Of a stretch of 64,000 bases of DNA, positions 24,766 to 62,511 are shown piece after piece; the first letter of the stretch is position 1, and each line of letters begins with the position of its first letter. This DNA comes from Flavobacteriales bacterium (GTDB taxonomy: Bacteria > Bacteroidota > Bacteroidia > Flavobacteriales > UBA7430), in assembly GCA_022425195.1 (NCBI GenBank), contig JAKMFX010000019.1, forward strand, positions 84,676 through 148,675. The letters are read 5' to 3'. The position numbers were made by a program, and so were the translations under genes. The notes beneath the pieces were generated by a model. The model worked only from the letters and a program-made list of their open reading frames with translations. It did no database searches and was not told the DNA's origin.

Positions 24766-25809
24766 CTACTTTTCCCAAGTATTTCCACCCGCCAATAATT
24801 TATTGAGGTCTGGTGCTCCTTTCACCTCAATCTCCTGTTGTAATTGTTGACTAAGGCTTTCTTCGTAAGTTCCTCTTTCTTCTTGATAGAAAATACCAAA
24901 AGGGCGAGGGCGTGCATCTGCGTCGGTCGCATTGTCTTCAAAAAACCGGACTAGAATATTGGCTTTGTTACGATCTGTTTCATCATGAATCCACAAATCA
25001 TCCATGCTGACGTTGTCGTCATTAAGCGAGACAATTTTGGCTTGAAAACCATCAAGAACAATCCCCTTATCTAGCTCAGCTCCAAATACAAGTGGTTTTC
25101 CGTGCTCTAGGTAGACACTGTTCTCTTTCTTATTGGTCTTGTCTGTAAATGTGGAAAAGGCACCATCATTAAAGATGTTACAGTTCTGATAAATTTCTAC
25201 CAAAGAAGTTCCCTGATGACGCTCAGCACGAAGCAAAATTTCTTTCAAGTGTTTTGGCTCTCGGTCGATCGATCGGGCAATGAAAGTCGCATCTGCACCC
25301 AAGCTCAAAGCCAAAGGATTAAATGGGTGATCCAAAGATCCCACAGGAGTCGACTTTGTCTTTTTTCCCAATTCAGAAGTTGGTGAGTACTGACCTTTGG
25401 TTAAACCATAAATCTGGTTGTTGAAAAGCAGAATATTCACATTGAAGTTTCTTCTCAAAAGGTGGATAAAGTGATTCCCTCCAATCGCTAGTGAGTCACC
25501 ATCTCCAGTGATAATCCATACGCTTAAGTCAGGGCGAGAAGCCTTTAAACCACTAGCAACAGCTGTAGCCCGACCATGAATGGAATGCATTCCGTAAGTA
25601 TTCATATAGTAAGGAAACCTTGAAGAACACCCGATACCAGATATAAAGACGATGTCTTCCTTAGGAATTCCCAATTCAGGCATCACACTTTGCACCTGTT
25701 TCAGGATGGAATAATCTCCACAACCTGGGCACCATCTAATGTCTTGGTCGCTAGAAAAATCTTTTGCAGTCAATTTTTGTTGATTGCTATCTTTTAAAAC
25801 ATCAAGCAT
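24766..25809 (-). CDS. korB: 2-oxoglutarate/2-oxoacid:ferredoxin oxidoreductase, beta (TPP-binding) subunit
   Basis: [10 protein letters not shown] and TPP motif [15 protein letters not shown]. Confidence 0.88.
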
Positions 25810-25814
25810 GAAAT

Positions 25815-27680
25815 TTACTTTAATTGGTTTAAAACTTCGTTTTTAATCTCTTGAGCATGGAAAGGTTGACCTTTTACTTTGCTTAAACGCTTGGCATCGA
25901 CCAAGTATTTGTCGCGAATCAACTTAACCAATTGTCCATCATTAAGTTCTGGAATGACAATCCGATCAAAATTCGACAGCAGTTCGCCCAAGTTTTCAGG
26001 GAATGGGTGAATGTATCGTATTTGTGCATGAGCAACATCAATTCCTTCATTGCTAAGCTCTTGAGCAGCTGTTTTGATGGCTCCATACGTGGATCCCCAA
26101 CCTAAAATCAATAATTTAGAGCTCATCGATCCACTATCCAGTTCCTGCTGGGGAACATGCTTTGCGATTTGATTTACTTTAGCTGCTCTAAGGTTCACCA
26201 TTTCTTGATGGTTGTCGGGATCATAAGAAACATTTCCTGACTCCTTATCCTTTTCCAAGCCACCCAAGCGGTGTTCTACACCTGGCGTTCCTGGAATGGC
26301 CCATTCTCTGACTAAATCTTCATTACGTTTGTAAGGTAAGTAAGGTTCATCGTCTTCTTTTCTGGCTTCGCGAACTTTAAGAGCAATGGGTTTTAGCTCT
26401 TCAGCCGTGGGGTATTTCCATGGCTCTGCACCATTTGCTATGTATCCATCGGTTAATAAAAATACTGGAGTCATGTGCTCTACGGCAATTCGGCATGCTT
26501 CATAAGCCATCTCAAAGCAATCAGAAGGAGACTGAGCCGCTACAATAGGTAAGGGTGCTTCTCCATTTCTACCGTACATCGCCTGCAATAAATCCGACTG
26601 CTCAGTTTTTGTCGGCAAACCTGTTGATGGTCCACCACGTTGTACATTAATGATGACCAAAGGGAGTTCCATCATAACAGCCAAACCTATAGCTTCGCCC
26701 TTAAGAGCAATCCCAGGGCCCGAAGAAGCTGTAGTGGCTAGATCACCACCAAACGAGGCGCCTATAGCAGAACAAATTCCCGCGATTTCATCTTCTGCTT
26801 GGAAGGTTTTAATGCCAAAGTTTTTGTGTTTTGCTAATTCATGAAGGATGTCTGATGCTGGAGTAATCGGATAACCTCCGTAGAATAAATTCATTCCTGA
26901 GGTATGAGCTGCAGCAATTAGCCCTAAAGATGTTGCCTGATTTCCAATGACGTTTCTGTAAACACCAGGCTCCATTTCTGCCGGTTTGATCTCAAAACGG
27001 TTTGAAAACGTTTCACTGGTTTCCGCATAGTGATAACCAGACTTTAAAACTTTCAAGTTGGCCTCAAGAACTTCTTCCTTAGATTTAAATTTTCTTTGGA
27101 GGAAATCAATGGTTGAATCCAAAGAACGGTTGTAAATCCAATAAATAAAACCGAGAACAAACATGTTTTTACATCGATCTCTTTCTTTAGACCCCAGAGA
27201 GGATTCTTTCAGGTTTTCTCGGGTTAACTTGGTGATATCTATCTGATGAACCTTGTAACCTTCTAAACTGGAGTTGGTCAATGGATTGTCCTCAGGGTCT
27301 ATGCCTGCTAACCTAAAGTTCTTTTTATCAAAGCCTGCCGAGTTGATGATGATGGTTCCTCTTTCCTTAAGTCTGGAAAGATTCTTTTTTAACGATGCTG
27401 CATTCATCGCCACCAATACATCACATAAATCTCCCGGGGTAAAAACAGCTGAGTTACCAAAATTAATTTGAAAACCTGAAACGCCTGCTAAGGTTCCCAA
27501 AGGAGCCCTAATTTCTGCGGGGAAGTCAGGAAAGGTACTCAAATCATTTCCATACAAAGCCGTATTATTGGTGAATTGATTTCCAATAAGTTGTATCCCA
27601 TCACCAGAGTCTCCAGCATAAAGAATGGTTACTTTGTCTAGTACGTTTTTAACTTGTGTGTTTTCTTTTTCCAATGTCAT
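25815..27680 (-). CDS. korA: 2-oxoglutarate/2-oxoacid:ferredoxin oxidoreductase, alpha subunit (fused gamma-alpha type)
   Basis: 621 aa with an N-terminal GDSGDGIQ (gamma-like) region followed by the pyrimidine-binding domain. Lies 5 nt upstream of korB. Confidence 0.88.
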
Positions 27681-27689
27681 TTTATTTGC

Positions 27690-28340
27690 TTAATGCAATC
27701 CACATTCCGTTTTTTGAGCATCTGCCCATCTACCTTCTCTACCTTGACCTTTCTTGGTACAATGAAAACATCCGATAGAATTATAACCACATAATTGAAG
27801 CGGGTGAGCAGGTAAATTATTTTTTACAATAAACTCCTTCTGATCTTCATCACTGGAATCTATCAGAGGGTAAAACTTTATAACGTCGTCTTTGAGTTCA
27901 AAAATTTGTTTCTCAGAACGAGCGCTGTTTTGATGGGCCATCAATCCCGAAACCCAAATTTTGAATCCTGTCTTTAATTTCTGTAAAGGGTTTACCTTGT
28001 TTAGAGAACAGCAAAAGTCGGGATTTTTTGACCAAGTTTCATCTTTCAGAGTGAACTCATTTTCCTGCGGATCTGGTTTTACATCAACCACCTGTAATCC
28101 TAATTTTTTAGCCAGCTTTTTCTTGTAGCTGATGGTTTCAGGAAATGAATACGTTGTATCAATAAAATGAATCTTTTGTTCGGGGTTTACCTTTGCGATT
28201 AGACCCAGTAAATACGCAGAAGAAGCTCCAAATGAAGAAGTTACCAAGACCTCGTCGGTCGAATACTCTTCGTATAAAGCACTCAGCCGTTCCTCGAGGC
28301 TAAGTGAAATATATTTTTTGTTCTTCGCTTCTATCATCAT
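27690..28340 (-). CDS. cysH: Phosphoadenosine-phosphosulfate/adenylylsulfate reductase family protein (CysH-like, Fe-S type cysteines)
   Basis: PP-loop-like SSFGASS and C-terminal ECGLH. The CC...CxxC cysteines (DFCCS, GCFHCT) suggest the [4Fe-4S] APS-reductase type. Confidence 0.8.
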   Translation of the reverse strand: MMIEAKNKKYISLSLEERLSALYEEYSTDEVLVTSSFGASSAYLLGLIAKVNPEQKIHFIDTTYSFPETISYKKKLAKKLGLQVVDVKPDPQENEFTLKDETWSKNPDFCCSLNKVNPLQKLKTGFKIWVSGLMAHQNSARSEKQIFELKDDVIKFYPLIDSSDEDQKEFIVKNNLPAHPLQLCGYNSIGCFHCTKKGQGREGRWADAQKTECGLH

Positions 28341-28344
28341 TCTC

Positions 28345-29490
28345 TTAATTCGCGTCTACCTCTTCAAAGTATGCATCTATACCCCCTGAAAGGTTGTATA
28401 AATTTGAAAATCCAAACTCTTTTTCAAGCAGTTGTATGGCTTTTTTACTTCTGGCACCGGCTTTACAGTGTACCACAACTTTTTTGTCCGATACAATTTG
28501 ATCTACCTCTTCCTCTACGTCTGCAAGAGGGATGTGAACGCCATCAAGATTAGAAATCTCATATTCAAAGTCCTCACGCACATCGATCAACTGAAAAGGC
28601 TCATCACTATTTTGCAAATCCAAAAATTCAGCAACAGAAAGGCTCTTCACGTCCTCCTCTTTGTTTGAACTAAAGCCACAAAATTCTTGATAATCTATTA
28701 ATTCTGTAATCGATGGGTTTTTTCCGTTCAACGGATTTTCATCGTCACGGTGCACTTTTACCGTTCTAGTTTCAAAGTTCATGGCATCAAAAAGGAACAG
28801 GCGGCCTACCAAAGGCTCTCCCACTCCCGTAATTACCTTGATTACCTCATTGGCTTGTAGCGAACCTACAATGCCAGGTAGCACACCTAAAACACCACCT
28901 TCAGCACAACTTGGAACCAATCCAGGAGGTGGTGGCGATGGGAATAAGTCTCTGTAGTTTGGTCCTACTACGCCTTCATTATTGATGTAATTGAAAACAG
29001 ATACTTGACCGTCGAATCGATAAATCGATGCATACACATTCGTTTTACCCAATAGGACACATGCATCATTTACTAAGTAACGGGTTGGGAAATTATCTGT
29101 CCCATCAGCTACTAAGTCATAATCCTTAACAATATCTAGAGCATTTTGAGAACTCAATAGGACATTATGAGTGACAATCTTAATGTAAGGGTTTAAACCT
29201 TCCAACCGTTCTTTGGCGGCTAAAACTTTTGGCTTGCCAATGTCATCGGTAGAGAATAGTACTTGACGTTGTAAGTTTGAATCTTCAACCACGTCGAAAT
29301 CAAGTACACCAATCGTACCCACCCCGGCAGCTGCTAGATACTGAAGAAGGGGTGCGCCCAAACCTCCAGTCCCCACGACCAACACTTTGGCTGCTTTTAA
29401 CTTCCGTTGTCCTTCAATATTGAATTCAGGGATAATTAAGTGCCGACTGTATCGGGATAATTCTTCTTTGCTAAATGTTTCTTCTGCCAT
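28345..29490 (-). CDS. MoeB/ThiF-type E1 adenylyltransferase fused to a rhodanese domain (MoeZ-like sulfur-carrier activator)
   Basis: ATP-binding VVGTGGLGAP and a C-terminal rhodanese domain with active-site loop HCKAGARS. Confidence 0.85.
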   Translation of the reverse strand: MAEETFSKEELSRYSRHLIIPEFNIEGQRKLKAAKVLVVGTGGLGAPLLQYLAAAGVGTIGVLDFDVVEDSNLQRQVLFSTDDIGKPKVLAAKERLEGLNPYIKIVTHNVLLSSQNALDIVKDYDLVADGTDNFPTRYLVNDACVLLGKTNVYASIYRFDGQVSVFNYINNEGVVGPNYRDLFPSPPPPGLVPSCAEGGVLGVLPGIVGSLQANEVIKVITGVGEPLVGRLFLFDAMNFETRTVKVHRDDENPLNGKNPSITELIDYQEFCGFSSNKEEDVKSLSVAEFLDLQNSDEPFQLIDVREDFEYEISNLDGVHIPLADVEEEVDQIVSDKKVVVHCKAGARSKKAIQLLEKEFGFSNLYNLSGGIDAYFEEVDAN

Positions 29491-29496
29491 GGTAAA

Positions 29497-29775
29497 TTAG
29501 TTTATTCCTCCTGCAATCGCTGGGATGATGCTAAGTACATCATCAGCTTTAAGGGCTGTTTTTTCTTTGTCTAGGACATTAATATCTTCATCACCTAAGT
29601 AAATTCTTAGAAAGCTTCTAATTTGATTTTTGTCATCAAAAAGGTGCTTATGAACCGTCGGGAATGCACTTGCAAGTGCTTCAATCGCTTCGTATACATT
29701 TGCAGCATCTGCTTCAAAGGCCGCTTGATTGTCTGTAAATTTTCTTAGGGGTGTTGGGATAATTACTTTTGCCAT
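29497..29775 (-). CDS. MoaD/ThiS-family sulfur-carrier protein (CysO-like) with residues after the Gly-Gly
   Basis: 92-aa beta-grasp-sized protein ending ...IIPAIAGG-IN. Flanked by JAMM and E1 genes. Confidence 0.8.
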   Translation of the reverse strand: MAKVIIPTPLRKFTDNQAAFEADAANVYEAIEALASAFPTVHKHLFDDKNQIRSFLRIYLGDEDINVLDKEKTALKADDVLSIIPAIAGGIN

Positions 29776-29796
29776 GATCTTAATTTTAAACGTTTT

Positions 29797-30228
29797 TTAC
29801 TTTTTTTCTTCGTTATCGAAAACGGGTTCTTGAATGAATTTTTGCGCATCGTTAAGCGTCCATGATGAGGTTGCTGCCACTTCACTTTTTACAATAGACA
29901 CAATCACATATGAGAAATTAGGCTGAGCAAATTTCAAATCTGTAGGCGAAGGCACTGCCGGGTGGTCTGGATGAGAGTGATAAACTCCAATTAAATCCAG
30001 ATCATTTTCTATCGCGTAGCGTTCTGCTTTTACATAATCAATAGGAGCAATTTCAAAGATTCGCTCCGGATTGGTTTTGTTTTGATTGACCACATCTCTG
30101 ATCTCAGTAACTTCTTTAATCTCGTTAATCTTTCCGTAAAAGAAGCCACATCCTTCGTGCGGATAGCACGCAACCAAATGCGCATGCATTTCTTTCAGTG
30201 CAGTGTCTGTAAACTTTACTTCTTTCAT
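29797..30228 (-). CDS. JAMM/MPN+ zinc metalloprotease (Mec+-like)
   Basis: Catalytic Glu region HEGCGF and JAMM motif HSHPDHPAVPSPTD. Confidence 0.85.
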   Translation of the reverse strand: MKEVKFTDTALKEMHAHLVACYPHEGCGFFYGKINEIKEVTEIRDVVNQNKTNPERIFEIAPIDYVKAERYAIENDLDLIGVYHSHPDHPAVPSPTDLKFAQPNFSYVIVSIVKSEVAATSSWTLNDAQKFIQEPVFDNEEKK

Positions 30229-30234
30229 CTTCTT

Positions 30235-31185
30235 TTATTTAAAAAGTTGTTCATAAACCTCGCTGTACTTGTCAGCACTATCAGGTATAATGGTTACGAT
30301 AACTCCCTCCTCCAGTTGATTTGCGAGTCGAATCGCTCCAACTAGGTTTGCAGCGCCTGAGGGTCCTATCAATAGGCCTTCTTTTTGTGAAATGTCTTTC
30401 AACAGAGCAAAACTTTCTTCTGTAGAGATTTCTTGATTGTCATCGGCTTGCTCAGCGTTGTATATCTTAGGTACCAAAGCCGTCTCCATATGCTTCCATC
30501 CCTCAATGGCATGCATGGCTGAATCAGGATGAAGGGCAATCACTTGAGTGTTGGGGTCTTGCTCTTTTAGGTACGTTCCCGTACCTCTCATCGTACCGGT
30601 AGTCCCAAGACCCGCCATGAAATGTGTGATCTTTTCATCACCCAGCTGCTCAACAATCTCAGGGCCTGTTGTTTTATAATGTGCTTCCCAGTTGCTATCG
30701 TTACCGTATTGGTCGGCGTAAAAATACTTCTCCGGATGAGCGGCAAACATCTCTTTCGCTTTGTTTTGGGCTCCATCTGTAGATTCATACTGAGATGTCA
30801 ATATCAGTTCAGCACCTAGAGATTTTAAATTTCTAATTCGCTCTATGGATGCATTCGCGGGGATACAAAGTGCTACAGGAATGCCTAAGGCGCCACAAAT
30901 AGAAGCATATGCAATACCCGTATTTCCACTCGAAGCGTCCAACAATGTTTTGTTTCGATCTAATTCGCCTGCAAAAATAGCGTTTTTAACAATTTCAAAG
31001 GCAGGTCGACTCTTCACGCTGGCCCCAAATTGTTGCCATTCTAACTTGGCGTATATTTTCACCCCTTTCTTTTGAAAAAGCCTGTTAAAAGGATACAGCG
31101 GAGTGTTACCTATGAACTTTTCCAATTGCTCTAATCCTTCAATTAAGCTTTTGTCTTCCACTCTATTTTCTTTTATCAGTTCCAT
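30235..31185 (-). CDS. cysM: Cysteine synthase family PLP enzyme (CysM/CysK-like)
   Basis: PLP-lysine region GASVKSRPA and SSGNTGIAYA loop. The start is taken at MELIKEN; the longer ORF start at 31236 would overlap cobA. Confidence 0.82.
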   Translation of the reverse strand: MELIKENRVEDKSLIEGLEQLEKFIGNTPLYPFNRLFQKKGVKIYAKLEWQQFGASVKSRPAFEIVKNAIFAGELDRNKTLLDASSGNTGIAYASICGALGIPVALCIPANASIERIRNLKSLGAELILTSQYESTDGAQNKAKEMFAAHPEKYFYADQYGNDSNWEAHYKTTGPEIVEQLGDEKITHFMAGLGTTGTMRGTGTYLKEQDPNTQVIALHPDSAMHAIEGWKHMETALVPKIYNAEQADDNQEISTEESFALLKDISQKEGLLIGPSGAANLVGAIRLANQLEEGVIVTIIPDSADKYSEVYEQLFK

Positions 31186-31213
31186 ATACTTTTTGTTCTC
31201 ATCTTTTTTAGCC

Positions 31214-31996
31214 TTAATGAGGCACTTGATGCGCAAGATTTTCGTTCACAAAATTATAAACGTATTCGGGATGAAGTTTCACAACTTCCCCAATCACAAT
31301 AACTCCAGGACCTTCTTGAGGTTCTGATTTTAGTTTATCAACGATGTTCGACATCTTCCCTACAAAGATCTTCTCATTGGGTAGGGAGCCGTTGAATATG
31401 ACTGCAATGGGGTAATTAGATCTTCCTTCCTCAGAATATATGGCCGCTATTTCTTCTATTTTTCGCAAGCCCATTAATATGACTACCGTGGCATCAGACT
31501 GAACAGCCAGAGAAACATCTTTCGAAAGCTTCCCATTGCTCTTCGTTCCCGTAATCACCCAGAATCCGTCGTTTATTCCTCTTTTCGTTAAGGGAATGCC
31601 CTGTAAACCTGTTAAAGCAATCGAGCTTGAAATTCCCGGTATATATTCGGTTTCTATGCCGTGAAGTTCTGCGTACTCTTTTTCTTCATACCCTCTTCCA
31701 AAAACATATGGATCTCCACCTTTTAAGCGTATCACGCTTCCCGCTTCTTCAACGTATTTTACAATGAGCTCATTGATTGCATCTTGAGAAAAAGAAGGCT
31801 CGCCAGCTCTTTTTCCGACAGAAATCTTAAGTGCAGCATCATTTGCTGCCTCAAGCAACTCTGGGTTCACCAATGCATCATACAAGATGACTTTGGCATC
31901 TCTAATGGCTCGGAAGCCCTTCCACGTGATCAACTCTGGATCACCTGGTCCTGCTCCAAGAATCATTAACTTACCCTTTGTCGTTTGCTTAATCAT
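31214..31996 (-). CDS. cobA: Uroporphyrinogen-III C-methyltransferase (siroheme branch)
   Basis: LGAGPGDPELIT and RLKGGDPYVFGRG motifs. Confidence 0.88.
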   Translation of the reverse strand: MIKQTTKGKLMILGAGPGDPELITWKGFRAIRDAKVILYDALVNPELLEAANDAALKISVGKRAGEPSFSQDAINELIVKYVEEAGSVIRLKGGDPYVFGRGYEEKEYAELHGIETEYIPGISSSIALTGLQGIPLTKRGINDGFWVITGTKSNGKLSKDVSLAVQSDATVVILMGLRKIEEIAAIYSEEGRSNYPIAVIFNGSLPNEKIFVGKMSNIVDKLKSEPQEGPGVIVIGEVVKLHPEYVYNFVNENLAHQVPH

Positions 31997-32723
31997 TGTT
32001 CTTTTCTCTTAATGCAAAAGCATCTTTCACAAACTTTACAGCAAGTGTTAAGTAACTTTGAGCAAAATCTTTAGTTGGTGCATTTTCATTCATGGCATAA
32101 ACCGTTTCCTGAAAGCTATTTTCTAAATTAAAGTGTGCAGCTTGAGGATACTTCTCATCAAAGTCTTTGATGATTCCTGCCTGAGTGTTGGTTTTCAATC
32201 CTTCAGAAACCAACAATGCTTTTGCTGTATTTACCAATGCTGAATAAGAATGGTAAATCGAATCTGAGTATGCATCTGCTTCGAAAGCTTCCGTTCCAGA
32301 CGCCAAACGCTCTTCCGACTCCAAAAGCAAAGTGGAAACAAGATCAATTGTAACCCCAGCACATTCACCAACTCCAATTTCGGTTTTGAAAGTCTCATCA
32401 TGACCCCAGTCTATGAAATCACTATCCACCAAATTATCTGTAGATGCCAAGCTTTTCAATAACTCATAGAAGTATGGCTTCCCTTGTCTTTGGTAATAAT
32501 CAATATGATACTCCCCTTCATTAGCGTGAGCTTCATAATCATTCAAAATCGTTTTTAAAGCTAATGGTGCTCTCTTGCTTGGGATCTTAACAATCTTATC
32601 CGAAACACGTCCGGCACCATCACCAATAACCCCTCCTCCGAGAAGGATTTGGGTTGCAGGTAATATCCCCTTCTTTACTTTAATTGCAATGGAATCCAAT
32701 GGCAGCCATCGAGTGTTGCCCAC
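31989..32723 (-). CDS. Sulfite reductase hemoprotein, C-terminal fragment: end of the NiR/SiR domain plus a helical C-terminal extension. Read in a different frame from the N-terminal fragment.
   Basis: ...IKVKKGILPATQILLGGGVIGDGAGR continues the SiR fold that breaks off in the upstream ORF. It overlaps that ORF by 44 nt in another frame. Confidence 0.7.
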   Translation of the reverse strand: MGNTRWLPLDSIAIKVKKGILPATQILLGGGVIGDGAGRVSDKIVKIPSKRAPLALKTILNDYEAHANEGEYHIDYYQRQGKPYFYELLKSLASTDNLVDSDFIDWGHDETFKTEIGVGECAGVTIDLVSTLLLESEERLASGTEAFEADAYSDSIYHSYSALVNTAKALLVSEGLKTNTQAGIIKDFDEKYPQAAHFNLENSFQETVYAMNENAPTKDFAQSYLTLAVKFVKDAFALREKNND

Positions 32724-34083
32724 ATGAGTTCATACACCCACTGATTTTAATCTTTAAATTTTTGTTGTAGATGTAGTCTGGATAATCTTGCTTTAAAACA
32801 TCTTCCAAGGCCCCAGCAACTCCTGTACTGTTGGCAATACCCAAGTTACACGTGTCGGTACCCGGACAAGCGGTAACATCATGAGTGCTGTCTGCACCTG
32901 GCACCGCAAAACCTAAACCGTCTAACTCGCTGTAAAGCACTTTTAGATTCGCTTCAGGAACGAACTTAATGACAAAGCCCTGACCGATGGTAAATCGAAT
33001 TTCATCGGAAGCCAATCTCTCAACAATCTTGGCAAGCGCACGTGCTTGAGTCGTTGTGAAGTCCCCTGTCAGAAGTCTTACGTTCACGGCATAGTACCCC
33101 TCTTGCTTTTGAGCGATCACATTACTCTTAAACCATTTGTCATAAGCTTCTGCATCAACATCTACATTAACGGTTTCAGTTAAAGGCTGAGGTCTTTTGC
33201 TTTCTTCGTAGGTGTCTGGATCAATATGAAACGTTTGGTGTTTTAATGCTTTACGCTCTAACTCAACCAATCTTTGAAATTCTTCTACACCAATCTTTTT
33301 CACCAAATACTTTAAACGAGCTTTGTTTCTTCGGGCTCTTTCTCCGTGCTTATCAAATACACGTACCAAGGCTTCGCTGTAAGGAATGATTGCGTCTTCC
33401 GGAAGGAAGTCGTAAACCGACTGCGCCAAGTAAGGCTGGGCACCCAAACCACCTGCGATCACGACTTTAAAACCACGCTGCTCTTCGCCGTTAACAATTC
33501 TTGTTTTTGCGATAAACCCAATATCGTGAATAAACGTATAAGCGCTGTCTTCCTCATCTGAGGAAAAAGCAATTTTCACCTTACGACCCATCTCTTGAGA
33601 AATAGGGTTTCTCAAAAAGAATTCAAACATTGCATGTGCATATGGACTCACATCAAACGGCTCATTTTTGTCAACTCCTGCCAAAGCAGATGCAGTAATG
33701 TTTCTTACCGTATTTCCACAAGCCTCCCTAAGCGTTACATCGTCTTTTTCAAGATCTGCCCATAGTTGAGGCGTTCTATCTAAACTCACATAGTGAATTT
33801 GAATGTCCTGACGTGTGGTAATGTGTAATTTTCCTGTTGAGTATTCATCGGCAACATCGGCAATTCTGAGCAACTGATTCAATTTTGTCTTACCGTATGG
33901 GAGCTTAATACGTATCATTTGCACTCCAGATTGACGCTGTCCATAAACCCCTCTTGCCAAACGAAGACTTCTGAACTTGTCTTCATCTAACTTACCATCT
34001 TTAAAAAGGTGGATCTTTCTTTCCAACTCAATAATATCCTTTTCTACTACAGGATTTTCAATTTCGGTTCTAAAACTTTGCAT
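32680..34083 (-). CDS. Assimilatory sulfite reductase hemoprotein (ferredoxin-type NiR/SiR family), N-terminal fragment ending prematurely
   Basis: Siroheme/4Fe-4S cysteine motifs TACPGTDTCNLG and SGCMNSCGQH. The stop comes directly after AAIGFHCN, inside the conserved domain. Confidence 0.8.
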   Translation of the reverse strand: MQSFRTEIENPVVEKDIIELERKIHLFKDGKLDEDKFRSLRLARGVYGQRQSGVQMIRIKLPYGKTKLNQLLRIADVADEYSTGKLHITTRQDIQIHYVSLDRTPQLWADLEKDDVTLREACGNTVRNITASALAGVDKNEPFDVSPYAHAMFEFFLRNPISQEMGRKVKIAFSSDEEDSAYTFIHDIGFIAKTRIVNGEEQRGFKVVIAGGLGAQPYLAQSVYDFLPEDAIIPYSEALVRVFDKHGERARRNKARLKYLVKKIGVEEFQRLVELERKALKHQTFHIDPDTYEESKRPQPLTETVNVDVDAEAYDKWFKSNVIAQKQEGYYAVNVRLLTGDFTTTQARALAKIVERLASDEIRFTIGQGFVIKFVPEANLKVLYSELDGLGFAVPGADSTHDVTACPGTDTCNLGIANSTGVAGALEDVLKQDYPDYIYNKNLKIKISGCMNSCGQHSMAAIGFHCN

Positions 34084-34111: not shown

Positions 34112-34141
34112 AAAAAAAACCTTTCTAGGAGGAAAGGCTTT
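34112..34141 (-). terminator. Intrinsic terminator inside the 5' leader of the cysteine operon (attenuator terminator)
   Basis: Minus strand AAAGCCTTTCctcctaGAAAGGTTTTTTTT. It lies 28 nt upstream of the sir ATG and about 30 nt downstream of the Cys-rich leader ORF stop. No upstream same-strand gene needs terminating. Confidence 0.65.
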
Positions 34142-34167
34142 GTATATCTATGATTTCTTGTTTGTCA

Positions 34168-34275
34168 TTAGCATATATCTAACCTTTCGTTTTGTGTACA
34201 ACAACACATTACATAACAGGCACAACAATTCATCATTGCGTTGTCTAGGTTAGTGTATGTATTTGAATTTTTCAT
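34168..34275 (-). CDS. Cysteine-rich leader peptide ORF (35 codons, 7 Cys): MKNSNTYTNLDNAMMNCCACYVMCCCTQNERLDIC
   Basis: I translated this by hand from the minus strand; it is absent from the ORF track because it is too short. There is an in-frame TAA 11 codons upstream of the ATG. Codons 17, 18, 20, 24, 25 and 26 are UGU, and codon 35 is UGC. Followed by the terminator above. Confidence 0.6.
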   Translation of the reverse strand: MKNSNTYTNLDNAMMNCCACYVMCCCTQNERLDIC

Positions 34276-34648
34276 GCTGTTGTTTATATAGGGTAATTGT
34301 GAGTGTGCTTAAATGATGGTTCATCTTAGCAACAACAGCAAGTTGCCTGTGTGGATACACGAGCAGATCTAGTAAGATCGTTGGATAGGGCTAAAAAAGT
34401 AATTTTCTTCATCACTTTTAGGGTCTGTAAAGTATTGTTAAAAACTTTTTGTAAATATACGACCATAATCAATTACAAAACAAGCAATCTTTTATTTATT
34501 TTAAAACTAATTGCGTTCGCAACTCCTCCAATACAACAAATGTTTCCCTCAAATTCACCGCTATAACCTACGTCATCATAGAGAGTTAAATAAATCAAAT
34601 CATGTAGATAGCTCTATATTATTTTTTATATTTAGACCATGATATAAT

Positions 34649-37192
34649 TTGTTTGAGATGAAATATTTTTGGCTAGCACTGGTGTTTATAAGTCCTTTAA
34701 ACGCCCAATTTTTCGATGACTTTTCCGATGGTGATTTTAAGGAGCACCCTACATGGCAAGGAACAGAAGCACACTTTGAGATCAATGATGAAAAGGGCTT
34801 GCGCCTGAACGCCCCCAGAGAAAGTGGTGTTTCCTACCTATCTACCCCCACTCAGTTGCTCGAAAACAGCTCTTGGCAAATGTCTCTGAAGTTAGATTTC
34901 AACCCCTCTTCGTCCAACTATTTAGACTGGTATTTAATGGCAAATGATTCGGTATTGAATCGTTCTTCAAAAGCCTACTTTGTAAGAGTTGGAGGGACTA
35001 CCGACGACATTTCTCTATATAAAAAAATCAACGGAGATGAAGTTAAAATCATTGACGGCTTGGACAAGCGTACTGACAGTAATCCTGTACAACTGCATCT
35101 TAAAATCTCACAATCTCTAAACGGCCTATGGCGTTTATGGATAGATGTAATGGAGGGAAAGGACTGGGTTTTGGAGGGGGAGGTGATGGACCAGGAAGTT
35201 CGTGAGACCAAATATACTGGTATTCATTGTGTATATACCTCCACGCGCAGTAATCGATTTTATTTCGATGATTTTATCCTCAACGGAAGCCTATTCATAG
35301 ACAGTATTCCGCCTAAGCTCATTACATCTTCGGTCGGAAACGAAAACACCCTCCAATTGCAATTTGATGCTGAAGACCTTGCTCCTCCCTCCTTGAATCA
35401 CTATACCCTCAACCCACAAACGATAAGACCCAGACAAGTTTTGCAAACCGGAAGTAAAATAACCCTCATCTTTGAAAATGATCTTCCCAGCAATACACAC
35501 TTTCATCTCGAGATAAAAGGCTTGTCGGATTCCACAGGCAATCTAATGGCAGATACACTTATTGAATTTTACAGACAATCTCACCTACCATTCGACCTCG
35601 TCATAAATGAAATCATGATGAATCCAGTGCCTAAAGTGCAACTCCCAAAGACAGAGTATATAGAGCTCTTCAACCGAACCGAATATCCGCTAACCATAAG
35701 AGGGTGGAAAGTCAAAATAAATCATAGCATTCGTGAAATCCCAGAAGTAACCATCCCAGCACAAGATCACCTCTTACTTACAAATCCAGAAGATTTACAT
35801 CCATTTAACGCACCATTCAAAGCAGCCCTAAGTCCATGGGTAAGCCTAGGCAATACTGAAAGTTACATCGGCCTGATGGACGAAGAAGGAAACATCATCC
35901 ACGAGGTGGAGTACCACAAATCATGGGTTCAAAACTCAAATAAAGAACGGGGTGGGTGGGCCCTAGAAATGATGGACCCAGAGCACTATTGTAGCGGAAA
36001 AATCAATTGGGGAGTTTGCAAGAATGACATCGGCGGTACACCGGGCTTCCCCAATAGCATAAGAGAAGATAAAGACGAAAGTAGCAACCTTCATATTCAA
36101 GACATCGTAGCTGTTGAACAAAATGAAATACAAATTCACTGGTCGGAAAACCTCTACGATTCGACGCTTTTCACAATCAACTCCACCTCCTTTTACCCCG
36201 CGATTGACGTTCGCAACATCCGCCACATACAAAACAAAACTTGGGTTCAATTTGCCGAGGATTTAAAAGAAGGCGAAAGCTATTTATTTGAAACCCCAGC
36301 TCTGAAAGACTGTTATCATCATGAGATCCAAAAGGCCCATCATGAATTTAGAAAAGGGCTATGGCCAGAAACAGGAGCTATTTATCTGAATGAATTGCTA
36401 TTTAACCCTCCGACGGGAGGTTATGACTATGTAGAGCTTTATAATACTTCCGAAGAATATATAGATCTTTCCAAACTTTACCTGGGAAACTATGACAGTC
36501 TATTCAACACCATTACAAATACAGAAAGGATCACCACAGACCCAGTGAATTTCCCCCCTAAGACGTATCTGGCATTGTGTGAAAACAAAGGTTGGATGGC
36601 GTCGAACTATAAAACCGACGTTTCCGTTAAATTTCTTGAGGTCCATCGGCTTCCTAATCTCCCGCGTCAAAAAGGAAGCCTCGCATTGAGCAATCTGGCC
36701 TTTGAAGTACTGGACAATTACAGCTATCATGAAAACCAGCATTTCTCGCGTTTAGGATCCCCAAAAGGGGTGGCTCTTGAAAGGTTGCATCCTACCTCAA
36801 CAAAATGGTTCTCCGCTTCATCAATGGAAAATTATGGAACTCCAGGAAGGAAAAACTCTCAATTCACTTACGAAGCACCGAGCAAAGCTAAGCTAGAAAT
36901 CCTGCCCGAAGTGTTTACGCCTAATCTGGACGGTAGGGAAGATTTTACAAACATTACACTCGTTCCTAAAAATCCAGTGAAGATAAACATCCACATATAC
37001 AATAAAAAGGGGAGGGTCATTCGTGAGCTTTGTCAATCGGAATTGATCACTCGGAAAACCCAATGGATTTGGGATGGCTTGAGCGAAGAAAAGCTCGAGC
37101 TACCCATCGGCATTTACATGATTGTTGTTGAATTATGGTCTTCTAAAGGCAAACCCGAATACCTGAAGCATCCCGTCGTCATACATCACTAA
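34649..37192 (+). CDS. Large secreted protein with two lamin-tail-domain (LTD)-like modules and a T9SS type-B-like C-terminal domain
   Basis: Signal peptide (KYFWLALVFISPLNAQ). LTD signatures INEIMMNP...EYIELFNRTEYPLTIRGWKV and LNELLFNP...DYVELYNTSEEYIDLSKLYL. C-terminal EVFTPNLDGREDF motif. Confidence 0.7.
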   Translation: MFEMKYFWLALVFISPLNAQFFDDFSDGDFKEHPTWQGTEAHFEINDEKGLRLNAPRESGVSYLSTPTQLLENSSWQMSLKLDFNPSSSNYLDWYLMANDSVLNRSSKAYFVRVGGTTDDISLYKKINGDEVKIIDGLDKRTDSNPVQLHLKISQSLNGLWRLWIDVMEGKDWVLEGEVMDQEVRETKYTGIHCVYTSTRSNRFYFDDFILNGSLFIDSIPPKLITSSVGNENTLQLQFDAEDLAPPSLNHYTLNPQTIRPRQVLQTGSKITLIFENDLPSNTHFHLEIKGLSDSTGNLMADTLIEFYRQSHLPFDLVINEIMMNPVPKVQLPKTEYIELFNRTEYPLTIRGWKVKINHSIREIPEVTIPAQDHLLLTNPEDLHPFNAPFKAALSPWVSLGNTESYIGLMDEEGNIIHEVEYHKSWVQNSNKERGGWALEMMDPEHYCSGKINWGVCKNDIGGTPGFPNSIREDKDESSNLHIQDIVAVEQNEIQIHWSENLYDSTLFTINSTSFYPAIDVRNIRHIQNKTWVQFAEDLKEGESYLFETPALKDCYHHEIQKAHHEFRKGLWPETGAIYLNELLFNPPTGGYDYVELYNTSEEYIDLSKLYLGNYDSLFNTITNTERITTDPVNFPPKTYLALCENKGWMASNYKTDVSVKFLEVHRLPNLPRQKGSLALSNLAFEVLDNYSYHENQHFSRLGSPKGVALERLHPTSTKWFSASSMENYGTPGRKNSQFTYEAPSKAKLEILPEVFTPNLDGREDFTNITLVPKNPVKINIHIYNKKGRVIRELCQSELITRKTQWIWDGLSEEKLELPIGIYMIVVELWSSKGKPEYLKHPVVIHH

Positions 37193-37220
37193 CAAAAGCA
37201 AAATATAGAAAACAAAAAAA

Positions 37221-37317
37221 GGGCAAGCTACTTAAATCACAGTGCTCAACCCTCTACCCTTGCTGCGTTCCCGCCCTGGGGGAATTTGAGGGGAGCGACT
37301 TGTCTAAGACTTGCCCC
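37221..37317 (-). ncRNA. ffs: Small bacterial SRP RNA (4.5S-type)
   Basis: Minus strand GGGGCAAGTCTTAGA...CCCCAGGGCGGGAACGCAGCAAGGGTAGAGGG...TTTAAGTAGCTTGCCC. The termini pair (GGGCAAG/CTTGCCC). Apical GCG-GGAA-CGC tetraloop with flanking AGCA/CAGG motifs as in domain IV. Followed by a T7 run and preceded by a TAnnTTTG box. Confidence 0.72.
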
Positions 37318-37320
37318 GCG

Positions 37321-37328
37321 CAAAGATA
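37321..37328 (-). promoter_or_regulatory. Candidate -7 promoter box for the SRP RNA
   Basis: Minus strand TATCTTTG fits TAnnTTTG and ends a few nt before the predicted 5' G-run of the SRP RNA. Confidence 0.5.
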
Positions 37329-60891: not shown

Positions 60892-62478
60892 ATGAAATCC
60901 CTCAAAGGAAAAAGAGCAATCCTCTACAGAAGAGTAAGTACGACCGATCAAAAAGATTACGGAAATAGTTTAAACTCTCAACAAACAGAACTTCATAAAT
61001 TCTGTGCGAGCCATTCTATTGAAATTGTTAAAGATTTTCAAGAAGACTATTCGGCTAAAGATTTCTACAGACCCGTATTTACGAAACTCATACAATATGC
61101 CACATTAAACAAAAACAGAATAGACTATCTTTTGGTATATCAATGGGATCGATTTTCTAGAAGCACTGTTGGATCAGTAAATATGGTGGAACTATTTAGA
61201 GGTATGAACATTGAGGTAAACAGCATAAATCAATGGGTAAATCACGATGATGCTCATCAACACCTTGTGTATATGTTTTATATTAGTATGCCAGAAGTTG
61301 ACAATAGAATCAGAAGAGATAGGACAATAGAAGGCACAAGAAGTAATCTTAAAGAAGGGCGTTGGGTGTTAAATCAGCCTAAAGGCTATGTACCAGGTAG
61401 AGATGAGACAGGAAAGGTATTAATGAAACCCGATCCAAAAATTGCCCCATTAATTTCTGAGTTATTCAAAGACTTTTCCCTCGGAATCTACTCTCAAAAT
61501 GAGTTGAGAAAATTACCCAAATTCAAACCACTTGAGTTAACAAAAAGTGGAATCAGTAGAATCTTGAATCAACCTTTATATTCAGGTAAAATTATAGTTC
61601 CTGCCTACAAGGATGAGCCAGAGCAGATGGTTGATGCCATTCACGAACCCTTAATCTCTGAGGAAATTTTTGAAAAAGTTCAATACGAACTGGGTCAAAG
61701 AAAACGCATCAAACATAAGCCTGTTAAACAAAATGATTTATTACCTATGAGAGGTTATTTATCTTGCAATAAATGTGGCTCTAACCTCACTGGGAGTGGT
61801 TCTAAGAGCAAAACAGGGAAGAAGCATTATTACTACCATTGTAACCCAAGAAATGGCTGTAATGAGCGATTTAAAGTCGCTTTAGCTCACAACTCAATTC
61901 AAGATACACTGGACAGTTTGAAACCCAAAGAAGAGGTCATAAACCTCTTCGAATACATCTTAAAAAACCAATATGAAAATTCTGAAAAGTCCAACAAGTC
62001 AACAATAAAAAAAATAGACGATAAGATTACTAAACTTAAGAACAGAAAAGACATCTTGTTGGATAGGTATTTAGATGGTCACATTGATAATGACACCTAC
62101 AATTCAAAATCTTCTGAATTATCGCATCAAATAAATGATTTGGTTTTTGATAAAAATCAATTGGATCAGTATGAAAAGGATGAAATTGAATACATCGACT
62201 TTGGAATTTATATGGTAAAACATCTTGGAACTCTATATGACAAAGGCAGTTTACCCATAAAACAAAAACTACTGAGTTCGATATTCAAAGAAAAACTCGT
62301 ATTTGATGGGGAAAAGTATCGAACTCCAAAACTCAATAAAGGAATTGAGCTCATTACGAGTAGCATCAAGGGATTGGAAAGCATAGGAAACAAAAACGGG
62401 AGACCATCTTTCGATAACCTCCCGTTAAGTACCTGGGGCGGGAATCGAACCCGCACTCTCGAAAGAACTGGATTTTGA
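60892..62478 (+). CDS. Large serine recombinase (resolvase/invertase N-terminal domain, recombinase domain and zinc ribbon)
   Basis: Catalytic-serine motif AILYRRVSTTDQ. Cys4 zinc ribbon (CNKCGS...YYYHCNPRNGC) and a C-terminal coiled-coil region. An alternative start is at 60871. The last ~16 codons are antisense to tRNA-Leu. Confidence 0.85.
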   Translation: MKSLKGKRAILYRRVSTTDQKDYGNSLNSQQTELHKFCASHSIEIVKDFQEDYSAKDFYRPVFTKLIQYATLNKNRIDYLLVYQWDRFSRSTVGSVNMVELFRGMNIEVNSINQWVNHDDAHQHLVYMFYISMPEVDNRIRRDRTIEGTRSNLKEGRWVLNQPKGYVPGRDETGKVLMKPDPKIAPLISELFKDFSLGIYSQNELRKLPKFKPLELTKSGISRILNQPLYSGKIIVPAYKDEPEQMVDAIHEPLISEEIFEKVQYELGQRKRIKHKPVKQNDLLPMRGYLSCNKCGSNLTGSGSKSKTGKKHYYYHCNPRNGCNERFKVALAHNSIQDTLDSLKPKEEVINLFEYILKNQYENSEKSNKSTIKKIDDKITKLKNRKDILLDRYLDGHIDNDTYNSKSSELSHQINDLVFDKNQLDQYEKDEIEYIDFGIYMVKHLGTLYDKGSLPIKQKLLSSIFKEKLVFDGEKYRTPKLNKGIELITSSIKGLESIGNKNGRPSFDNLPLSTWGGNRTRTLERTGF

Positions 62479-62511
62479 ATCCAGCGCGTCTACCAATTCC
62501 GCCACCCAGGC
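62430..62511 (-). tRNA. tRNA-Leu (anticodon CAA)
   Basis: Minus strand GCCTGGGTGGCGGAATTGGTAGACGCGCTGGATTCAAAATCCAGTTCTTTCGAGAGTGCGGGTTCGATTCCCGCCCCAGGTA. Cloverleaf with a long variable arm, anticodon loop TTCAAAA and T-loop GGTTCGATTCC. No encoded CCA. Confidence 0.9.

Follow-up and report, generated by a model that had tools for sequence, protein, structure and literature searches.

A 64,000-nt stretch of DNA from a Flavobacteriales bacterium (contig JAKMFX010000019.1; hereafter the window) contains a 565-nt intergenic gap upstream of the minus-strand sulfite reductase gene sir (ATG at 34083), the first gene of an operon for sulfite reduction and cysteine synthesis. We found that this leader carries two tandem short open reading frames (ORFs) with runs of cysteine (Cys) codons, uORF1 and uORF2, and that uORF2 is followed by an intrinsic terminator whose 5' arm can also pair with the end of uORF2. 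We consider it very likely that the leader is a ribosome-mediated (leader-peptide) transcription attenuator, which reports charged tRNA-Cys, and probably tRNA-Met, and gates the sulfite-reduction/CysO-type cysteine operon. The parts of the element, their alternative pairings and their recurrence come from sequence and computation. For comparison, we used 156 sir loci (80 genomic and 76 metagenomic, labelled L001 onward), most of them with 3-kb flanks, including the clade of the window itself, with 13 sequences whose sir is 89-95% identical.

Two cysteine-rich short ORFs and an intrinsic terminator precede sir

The leader peptide ORF, uORF2, spans 34275-34168 (minus strand, as do all leader features unless stated otherwise; stop codon at 34170-34168) and lies 84 nt upstream of the sir ATG. 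It has 35 codons and encodes MKNSNTYTNLDNAMMNCCACYVMCCCTQNERLDIC; seven of the codons specify Cys, six of them within 10 codons. Its sensor block, codons 14-26 (MMNCCACYVMCCC, 34236-34198), combines six Cys and three methionine (Met) codons in 13. A terminator scan of the same strand identified AAAGCCTTTC-CTCCTA-GAAAGGTTTT followed by the remainder of a T-run at 34141-34116. In the RNA, the intrinsic terminator (34141-34112) reads AAAGCCUUUC-CUCCUA-GAAAGGUUUU plus a U-tract, with the 5' arm AGCCUUUC at 34139-34132, the loop CUCCUA, the 3' arm GAAAGGUU at 34125-34118 and U8 at 34119-34112. Spacers of 28 nt separate it from the uORF2 stop on one side and from the sir ATG on the other. A second copy of GAAAGGUU is found at 34188-34181, near the 3' end of uORF2, within what we call Region 2 (GAAAGGUUAG, 34188-34179), the putative 5' strand of an antiterminator located 10-19 nt upstream of the uORF2 stop.

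Much of this layout had been proposed in an original prediction made from the letters of the window. The ORF with its seven Cys codons is present in the sequence and the ORF listing, the terminator scan confirmed the hairpin with U8, and the gene listing agrees that no same-strand gene upstream would need a terminator there; the gene that comes next is divergent and begins at 34649 on the plus strand. The prediction went wrong in describing a single Cys leader ORF, since the gap holds two and uORF1 had been overlooked. uORF1 (34415-34326) encodes MKKITFLALSNDLTRSARVSTQATCCCC, with an ATG at 34412, an in-frame GTG at 34415 and a stop codon at 34328-34326. It ends with the Cys run UGC UGU UGU UGC (34340-34329), which forms the 5' arm of a hairpin with AACAACAGC (34284-34276), directly 5' of the uORF2 AUG; alternatively, AACAACAGC can pair with the UGUUGUUGU run of uORF2. 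The inverted repeat GCUGUUGUU (34339-34331)/AACAACAGC that had been pointed out earlier is thus present, but GCUGUUGUU is the Cys run of uORF1 and not merely a repeat arm. A plus-strand short ORF at 34257-34316 (MYLNFSCCCLYRVIVSVLK) also contains CCC; as the mirror image of AACAACAGC, it is most likely without meaning.

Bacteroidetes promoters follow the consensus TTTG/TAnnTTTG, and a promoter-like site of this type can be read from the sequence upstream of uORF1 at 34483-34452, consisting of TTG/TTTG (34483-34476) and TATATTTA (34459-34452). It predicts a transcription start at about 34445, approximately 30 nt upstream of uORF1. L002 and L001 retain the site, and L003 and L078 have perfect TATATTTG motifs at the equivalent place.

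We then compared the gap with dinucleotide shuffles of itself, defining a Cys cluster as at least 3 Cys in 5 codons. One ATG-initiated ORF with a Cys cluster arose in 1.8% of the trials and two arose in 0.05%. A six-frame scan of whole loci for Cys clusters was swamped by out-of-frame noise within coding genes, such as a recurrent antisense 'SVIYTSCCCYF', and the scan was therefore confined to intergenic gaps. The window has 4.6 kb of intergenic DNA with 50 short ORFs, and the only others with a Cys cluster were artefacts, one arising from the inverted repeat read in antisense and one located within the unfiltered cysO gene. The 351-nt leader folds better than its shuffles (z = -4.6). By a rough estimate, about 0.6 perfect 9-mer complementarities are expected by chance in a 565-nt AT-rich gap, and pairings of 7-9 nt are thus near chance level; they carry weight because of their position and conservation, not because of their length. 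In an Rfam 15 scan at E <= 10, the leader had no match at gathering score, the top hit being Phe_leader with 20.8 bits against a cut-off of 55 (E = 2.5). No leader RNA family was detected at gathering score anywhere in the 64-kb window, and no aptamer in the sir leader.

The end of uORF2 is predicted to compete for the terminator arm

To describe the switch, we initially computed full-length minimum free energy (MFE) structures with ribosome masks, but these are dominated by strong terminators, with little difference in energy between the states. For this reason, we folded RNA ending at the terminator loop, before the 3' arm, with a 28-nt mask for the ribosome. In the window, AGCCUUUC paired with the upstream copy of GAAAGGUU (34188-34181) when the RNA was free or carried a ribosome at any of codons 17-26, and this pairing was gone with a ribosome at codon 35 (the last Cys codon) or at the stop codon. 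The antiterminator duplex of the window has an energy of -9.1 kcal/mol, compared with a shuffle mean of -3.9 kcal/mol (p = 0.006). Masked folding gave the same behaviour for L005 and for both ORF-terminator units of L018 and of L062, and in part for L001 and L003. Across units, the best partner of the terminator 5' arm was located -24 to +1 nt from the stop of the short ORF in 14 of 16, and the antiterminator surpassed shuffles with a Fisher-combined p = 2e-9 over the 16 units, some of which are related.

The helices are invariant within the clade, and we therefore relied on pairing across lineages instead of covariation within the clade. Each ORF end was paired with its own terminator arm and with the arms of other lineages; mean duplex energies were -10.1 kcal/mol for matched and -7.8 kcal/mol for mismatched combinations (permutation p = 1e-4). 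The terminator's own ORF end ranked 1 of 15 in seven units, among them the window. Because ORF ends pair best with their own arm, Region 2 tracks the sequence of its own terminator, which amounts to covariation that is invisible in the invariant clade alignment. Masked folding, shuffles and the mismatched-lineage control thus support the use of the GAAAGGUU duplicate as an antiterminator strand, and the alternative structures that had been suggested for checking were reproduced with ribosome masks. Compensatory changes, the other suggested check, were borne out in matched pairing across lineages but not inside the clade.

The least secure helix is the one proposed as anti-antiterminator, in which Region 1 (CUAACCU, 34253-34247) pairs with AGGUUAG (34185-34179). 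The complementarity exists and the helix forms in the free full-length MFE structure, but Region 1 lies 5' of the footprint of a stalled ribosome, and an anti-antiterminator role in this model is unproven. At the equivalent place, the L001 subclade has a different 10-bp helix.

The leader is conserved in the clade and recurs in unrelated form

The clade alignment shows no variation in the Cys blocks, the GAAAGGTT box or the terminator stems, in contrast to the spacers and the terminator loop (CUCCUA, CUCAUC or UUAAUC). Region 2 is invariant in 14 sequences, as is AACAGC-AUG at the start of uORF2 throughout the clade. Within uORF2, the Cys block NAMMNCCAC...CCC is invariant, whereas non-Cys and N-terminal residues change freely; the second Cys run varies in frame and comprises 3 or 5 Cys codons. 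In the terminator of L156, one-sided changes occur with pairing retained. Twelve clade members keep uORF1; its terminal Cys codons number 4, 5 or 6, and its indels, of 33 and 36 nt, preserve the frame. The uORF1 ATG is lost in L083 and L090, and the adjacent in-frame GTG is kept.

We next screened for the combined signature of a Cys-cluster short ORF and a terminator in operon-leading gaps (sense strand) and in other gap-strands as controls. Of 127 operon-leading gaps, 28 had it, compared with none of 215 control gap-strands (Fisher p = 1e-13); these matches are not all independent and represent about 10-12 independent lineages. One match, in a Mucilaginibacter locus (L044), is likely a false positive that adjoins the gene of a small CxxC protein. 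Outside the clade, sir leaders with a Cys-cluster short ORF and a strong terminator were found in L003, L005, L011, L018, L062 and L078, as well as in L132/133/136/139/140, L143-145, L147/150 and L160. Leader sequences of different lineages cannot be aligned, and their peptides share only Cys/Met richness. The check for conservation that accompanied the original prediction therefore came out in its favour, both in the 13-sequence clade and in at least 10 lineages with unrelated leaders. Two complete ORF-terminator units stand in tandem in L018, L062 and L160. L143-145 have the same layout as the window, with a first ORF lacking a terminator and a second ORF that is followed by one and contains up to 12 Cys in 30 codons. 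Across leaders, Cys is encoded by 66 TGT and 36 TGC codons; the use of both points to selection on the codon and not on an RNA motif.

In lineages without a Cys leader, a gene for an Rrf2-family regulator often adjoins the operon (for example L157, 5147-5578), and in L132-L140 an Rrf2 gene (L133, 392-847) and a Cys leader occur together. Mucilaginibacter loci have a small gene of about 145 aa upstream of sir (e.g. L038, 2429-2863).

Met codons accompany the Cys codons

Met was not among the selection criteria for the leaders, and we examined its codons in 22 non-redundant leader peptides. Internal Met is enriched 4.0-fold (52 observed versus 13 expected, p = 7e-17), and it accounts for 20% of the non-Cys residues within 3 codons of a Cys, compared with 5% elsewhere (p = 2e-7). 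In the reading frame of the peptides, 52 ATG triplets were counted, as opposed to 5 and 10 in the two alternative frames. Met codons are interleaved with Cys codons in the sensor block of the window and in L003, L005, L018, L062, L132-L140, L143, L147 and L160. Alternative starts may partly explain the Met codons upstream of the Cys clusters; 22 of the 52, however, are located within or after the cluster and are thus not alternative starts for it. Because Met codons are enriched beside Cys codons, the sequences suggest combined sensing, and the leaders probably report both sulfur amino acids. We know of no described leader peptide that senses Met.

uORF1 is predicted to pair next to the start of uORF2 and has homologs in SAM riboswitch leaders

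The hairpin between the uORF1 Cys run and the 9 nt 5' of the uORF2 AUG has a predicted energy of -18.5 kcal/mol, and of -14.3 and -16.2 kcal/mol in two relatives. In the unrelated L143 leader, GUUGUUG of the first ORF similarly pairs with CAACAAC just upstream of the second ORF. This inter-ORF pairing is in line with the mechanism demonstrated for a mycobacterial poly-Cys ORF, and by analogy we propose that uORF1 would gate ribosome loading on uORF2.

A paralog of uORF1 is located at 24390-24268 (minus strand; MKKDAFLFSLKSVFNRLESIHLRWVFFSMPCCSLTLKSKY) in the methionine (met) leader of the window. Its start context is that of uORF1, its end lies 32 nt before metX, and no terminator follows it. 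The met leader consists, in order and on the minus strand, of a promoter-like TATATTTG, a SAM-I (S-adenosylmethionine) riboswitch at 24607-24509 (81 bits), a terminator at about 24481-24449 and this short ORF. A SAM riboswitch also precedes the uORF1 homolog in L085 and L159. In L159 (1453-1860; 5861-6000), metX, OsmC, metB-like and aspartokinase genes are located between the uORF1 homolog and a shortened uORF2 (MCNCKPKERFFTLLRI), which is followed by a weakened terminator and then sir; in L085 (1153-2000), only fragments of met genes separate uORF1 and uORF2. L156 (1861-2000) was grouped with these two as a relative with other leader wiring. The arrangements in L159 and L085 suggest that the tandem layout of the window was probably derived by deletion or rearrangement, and the sequences point to a modular shuffling of leader units among relatives. 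The uORF1 copy of L159 is decayed, with a frameshift and loss of the Cys run, in contrast to the conserved copies, which argues that uORF1 is maintained in the window.

A further arrangement was observed in L143 (1514-1715; also in L144 and L145), where 8 nt separate the end of a SAM-I aptamer (77.6 bits) from the AUG of the poly-Cys ORF (…SMSCCCCCCK). We saw no obvious riboswitch terminator between aptamer and ORF, and the AUG is located in the loop of a UUAAUUGAC/GUCAAUUGG hairpin. The riboswitch may gate translation of the leader peptide.

Proposed mechanism and alternative explanations

From the parts described above, we infer the following ribosome positions, kinetic order and cysteine response, as well as the role of uORF1. 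The decision unit would be uORF2 together with the terminator. When cysteine is plentiful, the ribosome would reach the uORF2 stop and cover GAAAGGUU at 34188-34181, leaving AGCCUUUC (34139-34132) to pair with GAAAGGUU at 34125-34118, and RNA polymerase would terminate at U8. When cysteine is scarce, the ribosome would stall in the MMNCCACYVMCCC block, the upstream GAAAGGUU would be free to capture AGCCUUUC during transcription, the terminator would be blocked and transcription would continue into sir. A ribosome stalled on the terminal CCCC of uORF1 would, in addition, keep AACAACAGC beside the uORF2 AUG unpaired, such that loading of uORF2 would be favoured only at low cysteine. The extension of this scheme to a two-stage sensor of two amino acids, with uORF1 as a relay (two successive stalls), Met and Cys sensing, and SAM-I in series in sister lineages, is considerably more speculative. 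If it holds, the relay would sharpen the response, and the series wiring would let a single leader combine signals from SAM, Met-tRNA and Cys-tRNA.

Several observations weigh against an attenuator of this kind. In the full-length MFE structures, a stall at the first Cys pair gave the terminator (-20.3 kcal/mol) and a stall at the last pair gave the antiterminator (-19.8 kcal/mol); as the two states are nearly isoenergetic, the switch must be kinetic. The antiterminator comprises 8 bp only, and free RNA ending before the 3' arm still favours it over the CUAACCU/AGGUUAG helix, which itself lies 5' of the Cys codons and outside the footprint of a stalled ribosome. The Cys at codon 35 directly precedes the stop, and according to masked folding a stall there would favour termination. 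Antiterminator complementarity is weak in L005, L011, L132, L136, L139 and L160, and in L011 the pairing was unaffected by a ribosome at the stop in masked folds. A true compensatory change was not found within the clade, the helices of which never vary, and the covariation comes from the comparison between lineages. Many Bacteroidota are without the element and have an Rrf2 regulator gene instead; Solitalea, Mucilaginibacter and the cysDN-type Flavobacteriaceae are among the lineages without it. The leaders of cysH-cysD-cysN-sir operons in Flavobacteriaceae lie beyond 3-kb flanks; of the two such loci examined with 9-kb flanks, those of Flavimarina and Pseudofulvibacter, neither has a Cys short ORF, and the Flavimarina locus has an Rrf2 gene. 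Finally, sir itself is frameshifted near 32687-32689 and consists of two overlapping ORFs (467 and 244 aa, 31989-34083). In a tblastn search, the alignment with a 96%-identical homolog of 703 aa changes frame at ...AIGFH | AIKVKKG..., and the homologs are single proteins of about 700 aa; the frameshift may reflect an assembly error or pseudogenisation.

We also asked how well other explanations account for the leader. It could act on translation, as mycobacterial poly-Cys ORFs do (bioRxiv 10.1101/834739), with a stalled ribosome opening a hidden start and the hairpin with U8 being incidental or a partial terminator. Indeed, neither uORF1 nor its paralog before metX comes with its own terminator, and the uORF1 Cys run pairs with the 9 nt beside the uORF2 AUG. 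However, a canonical terminator separates uORF2 from sir, ending 28 nt before the gene, and none of the predicted helices includes the sir start region. Moreover, every other lineage has a strong terminator after the Cys short ORF, with lineage-specific antiterminator complementarity. For uORF1, though not for the uORF2 unit, a translational mechanism is quite plausible; as an account of the leader as a whole it is improbable. Somewhat less probable still is a terminator switched by a trans-acting protein, a small RNA or a metabolite-binding RNA, in which case the Cys ORFs would be a by-product of GU-rich motifs. The (UGU)n/(ACA)n complementarity would then be low-complexity pairing, and both the better-than-shuffled folding of the leader and the SAM riboswitches that adjoin homologous short ORFs at other loci speak for such an RNA; yet Rfam returned no match, and what is conserved across lineages is not an RNA sequence but only the ORF, the Cys codons and the terminator logic. 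The mixture of TGT and TGC, the enrichment of ATG in frame only and the in-frame indels also disagree with a by-product of RNA motifs.

The invariance of the Cys block in the clade might instead reflect functional peptides that are co-transcribed with the operon, such as precursors of RiPPs (ribosomally made peptides with post-translational modifications) or metal- or redox-active peptides; small Cys-rich peptides do occur in natural-product clusters of Bacteroidota. We rejected the RiPP-precursor reading on gene context, as there are no modification, protease, export or immunity genes nearby and the neighbours are sulfur-assimilation enzymes. The sharing of only Cys/Met richness between lineages and the freedom of non-Cys residues to change within the clade make a functional product very unlikely in general, and a terminator placed after the peptide gene and before the operon is what one expects of a leader but not of a product expressed together with the operon. 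Chance, meaning that a (TGT)n microsatellite and an unremarkable hairpin happen to lie in an AT-rich gap, deserves almost no credence. TGT repeats can expand by slippage, and single complementarities of 7-9 nt are near their estimated rate in 565 nt, but the rarity of two Cys-cluster ORFs in shuffles, the 28 of 127 versus 0 of 215 gaps and the conservation in 13 clade members effectively refute this explanation.

The downstream operon and its neighbourhood

According to Pfam and to the tight same-strand spacing of its genes, the regulated operon (24766-34083, minus strand) comprises sir, a cobA-type methylase (a uroporphyrinogen methylase by Pfam), a CysM-like pyridoxal phosphate (PLP) enzyme, JAB/Mec, ThiS/CysO, ThiF-rhodanese/MoeZ, CysH and the alpha and beta subunits of a 2-oxoacid:ferredoxin oxidoreductase. 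This agrees with the earlier assignment of the controlled genes to cysteine synthesis. The operon combines sulfite reduction with a protein-thiocarboxylate route to cysteine, which we call CysO-type on the presumption that it corresponds to the pathway of M. tuberculosis. The 2-oxoacid:ferredoxin oxidoreductase genes (24766-27680, minus strand) close the operon and are also found at the end of the L159 operon; their product may supply reduced ferredoxin to the ferredoxin-type sulfite reductase.

The C-terminal third of sir (31989-32723; also in homologs, P0006 and others) has a weak match to a HEPN domain (E = 4e-5), an unusual fusion partner, and several database entries name the whole sulfite reductase of about 700 aa 'HEPN domain-containing protein'. 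The neighbour on the opposite strand encodes a lamin-tail-domain (LTD) protein sorted by the type IX secretion system (T9SS). Elsewhere in the window, a Bacteroidales-type small signal recognition particle (SRP) RNA (37217-37323, minus strand, 83.5 bits) and a tRNA gene (62430-62511, minus strand) were annotated.

Comparison with known systems

Cysteine is a conspicuous absentee among the amino acids of classical terminator-based leader-peptide attenuators, and the known Cys ORFs either lack terminators or control a synthetase gene. In the literature covered, which did not include Lopatovskaya et al. 2010 (Mol Biol 44:128), we found no Cys leader described in Bacteroidota or before sulfite-reductase/cysteine operons; Naville and Gautheret 2010 mention none. 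The elements described here would be the first attenuators of this kind to be proposed for sulfate/sulfite assimilation and cysteine synthesis in Bacteroidota, a phylum in which sulfur regulation is poorly known. Their recurrence with independent sequences offers a natural system for studying how attenuators are reinvented, and the mixture of Met and Cys codons next to SAM riboswitches is a testable case of multi-signal integration in one leader. In practical terms, genome annotation would gain regulatory ORFs that have so far gone unannotated, and Bacteroidota genetics a compact switch responsive to cysteine.

Leader-peptide attenuation as such has been recognised in Bacteroidetes for a Trp leader, and ilvE and hisG leaders were predicted in Flavobacterium psychrophilum (PMC9723704 and its supplement). 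The remark in the original prediction that no RNA family is named for a Cys leader holds with respect to Rfam 15; Cys leader peptides themselves, by contrast, are no novelty, with examples in Actinobacteria and upstream of cysS in Rhodobacterales, and the idea is therefore less unprecedented than first thought. In Actinobacteria, short ORFs with Cys runs and no obvious terminators were predicted as Cys leader peptides (Seliverstov et al. 2005, PMC1262725). A ribosome stalled on the mycobacterial polycysteine leaderless short ORF blocks a duplex that hides the next gene's ribosome-binding site (Canestrari et al., bioRxiv 10.1101/834739). The window shares with these systems Cys-codon runs upstream of cysteine operons, stalling as the signal (in the window a predicted one), and several loci per genome that may co-respond. 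The mycobacterial mRNAs, however, are leaderless and controlled at the level of translation, whereas the ORFs of the window would lie in a leader after a promoter-like site and come with a canonical terminator and antiterminator. Only uORF1, whose Cys run forms a duplex with the start region of uORF2, resembles the mycobacterial logic; the uORF2 unit does not.

Another predicted attenuator with Cys codons is uORFC-8-2 upstream of cysS in Rhodobacterales, whose ORF contains tandem Cys codons and whose terminator has a U run (Brewer et al. 2021, PMC8632094). It controls the gene for cysteinyl-tRNA synthetase, and it has two Cys codons only, at about positions 14-15 inside stem 1. By its description it is a single alignable family of one alphaproteobacterial order, which sets it apart from the many non-alignable leaders reported here. 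The window leader falls outside that family, as its downstream gene is sir and its organism a Flavobacteriales relative. SAM-I (S-box) riboswitches likewise form transcription-terminating leaders before Met and Cys genes, and in L085, L159 and L143 they directly precede homologous Cys short ORFs. They sense a metabolite by an aptamer, whereas the sir leader of the window would sense tRNA charging by means of the ribosome.

The strongest likeness is to the classical attenuators of Proteobacteria (trpL, hisL, leuL, thrL, pheL and ilvL). With these, the window shares a 5' leader ORF with clustered codons for the end product, a terminator just before the first gene, a mutually exclusive antiterminator whose 5' strand lies at the end of the ORF, and an operon that makes the sensed amino acid. 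Unlike them, it would sense Cys with interleaved Met codons, has two tandem Cys ORFs and has a candidate anti-antiterminator that avoids the regulatory codons. The sir leader most likely works like the trp, his, leu, thr, phe and ilv leaders, with a possible tandem relay, a mixture of Met and Cys codons and, in sister lineages, SAM riboswitch wiring in series as variant features.

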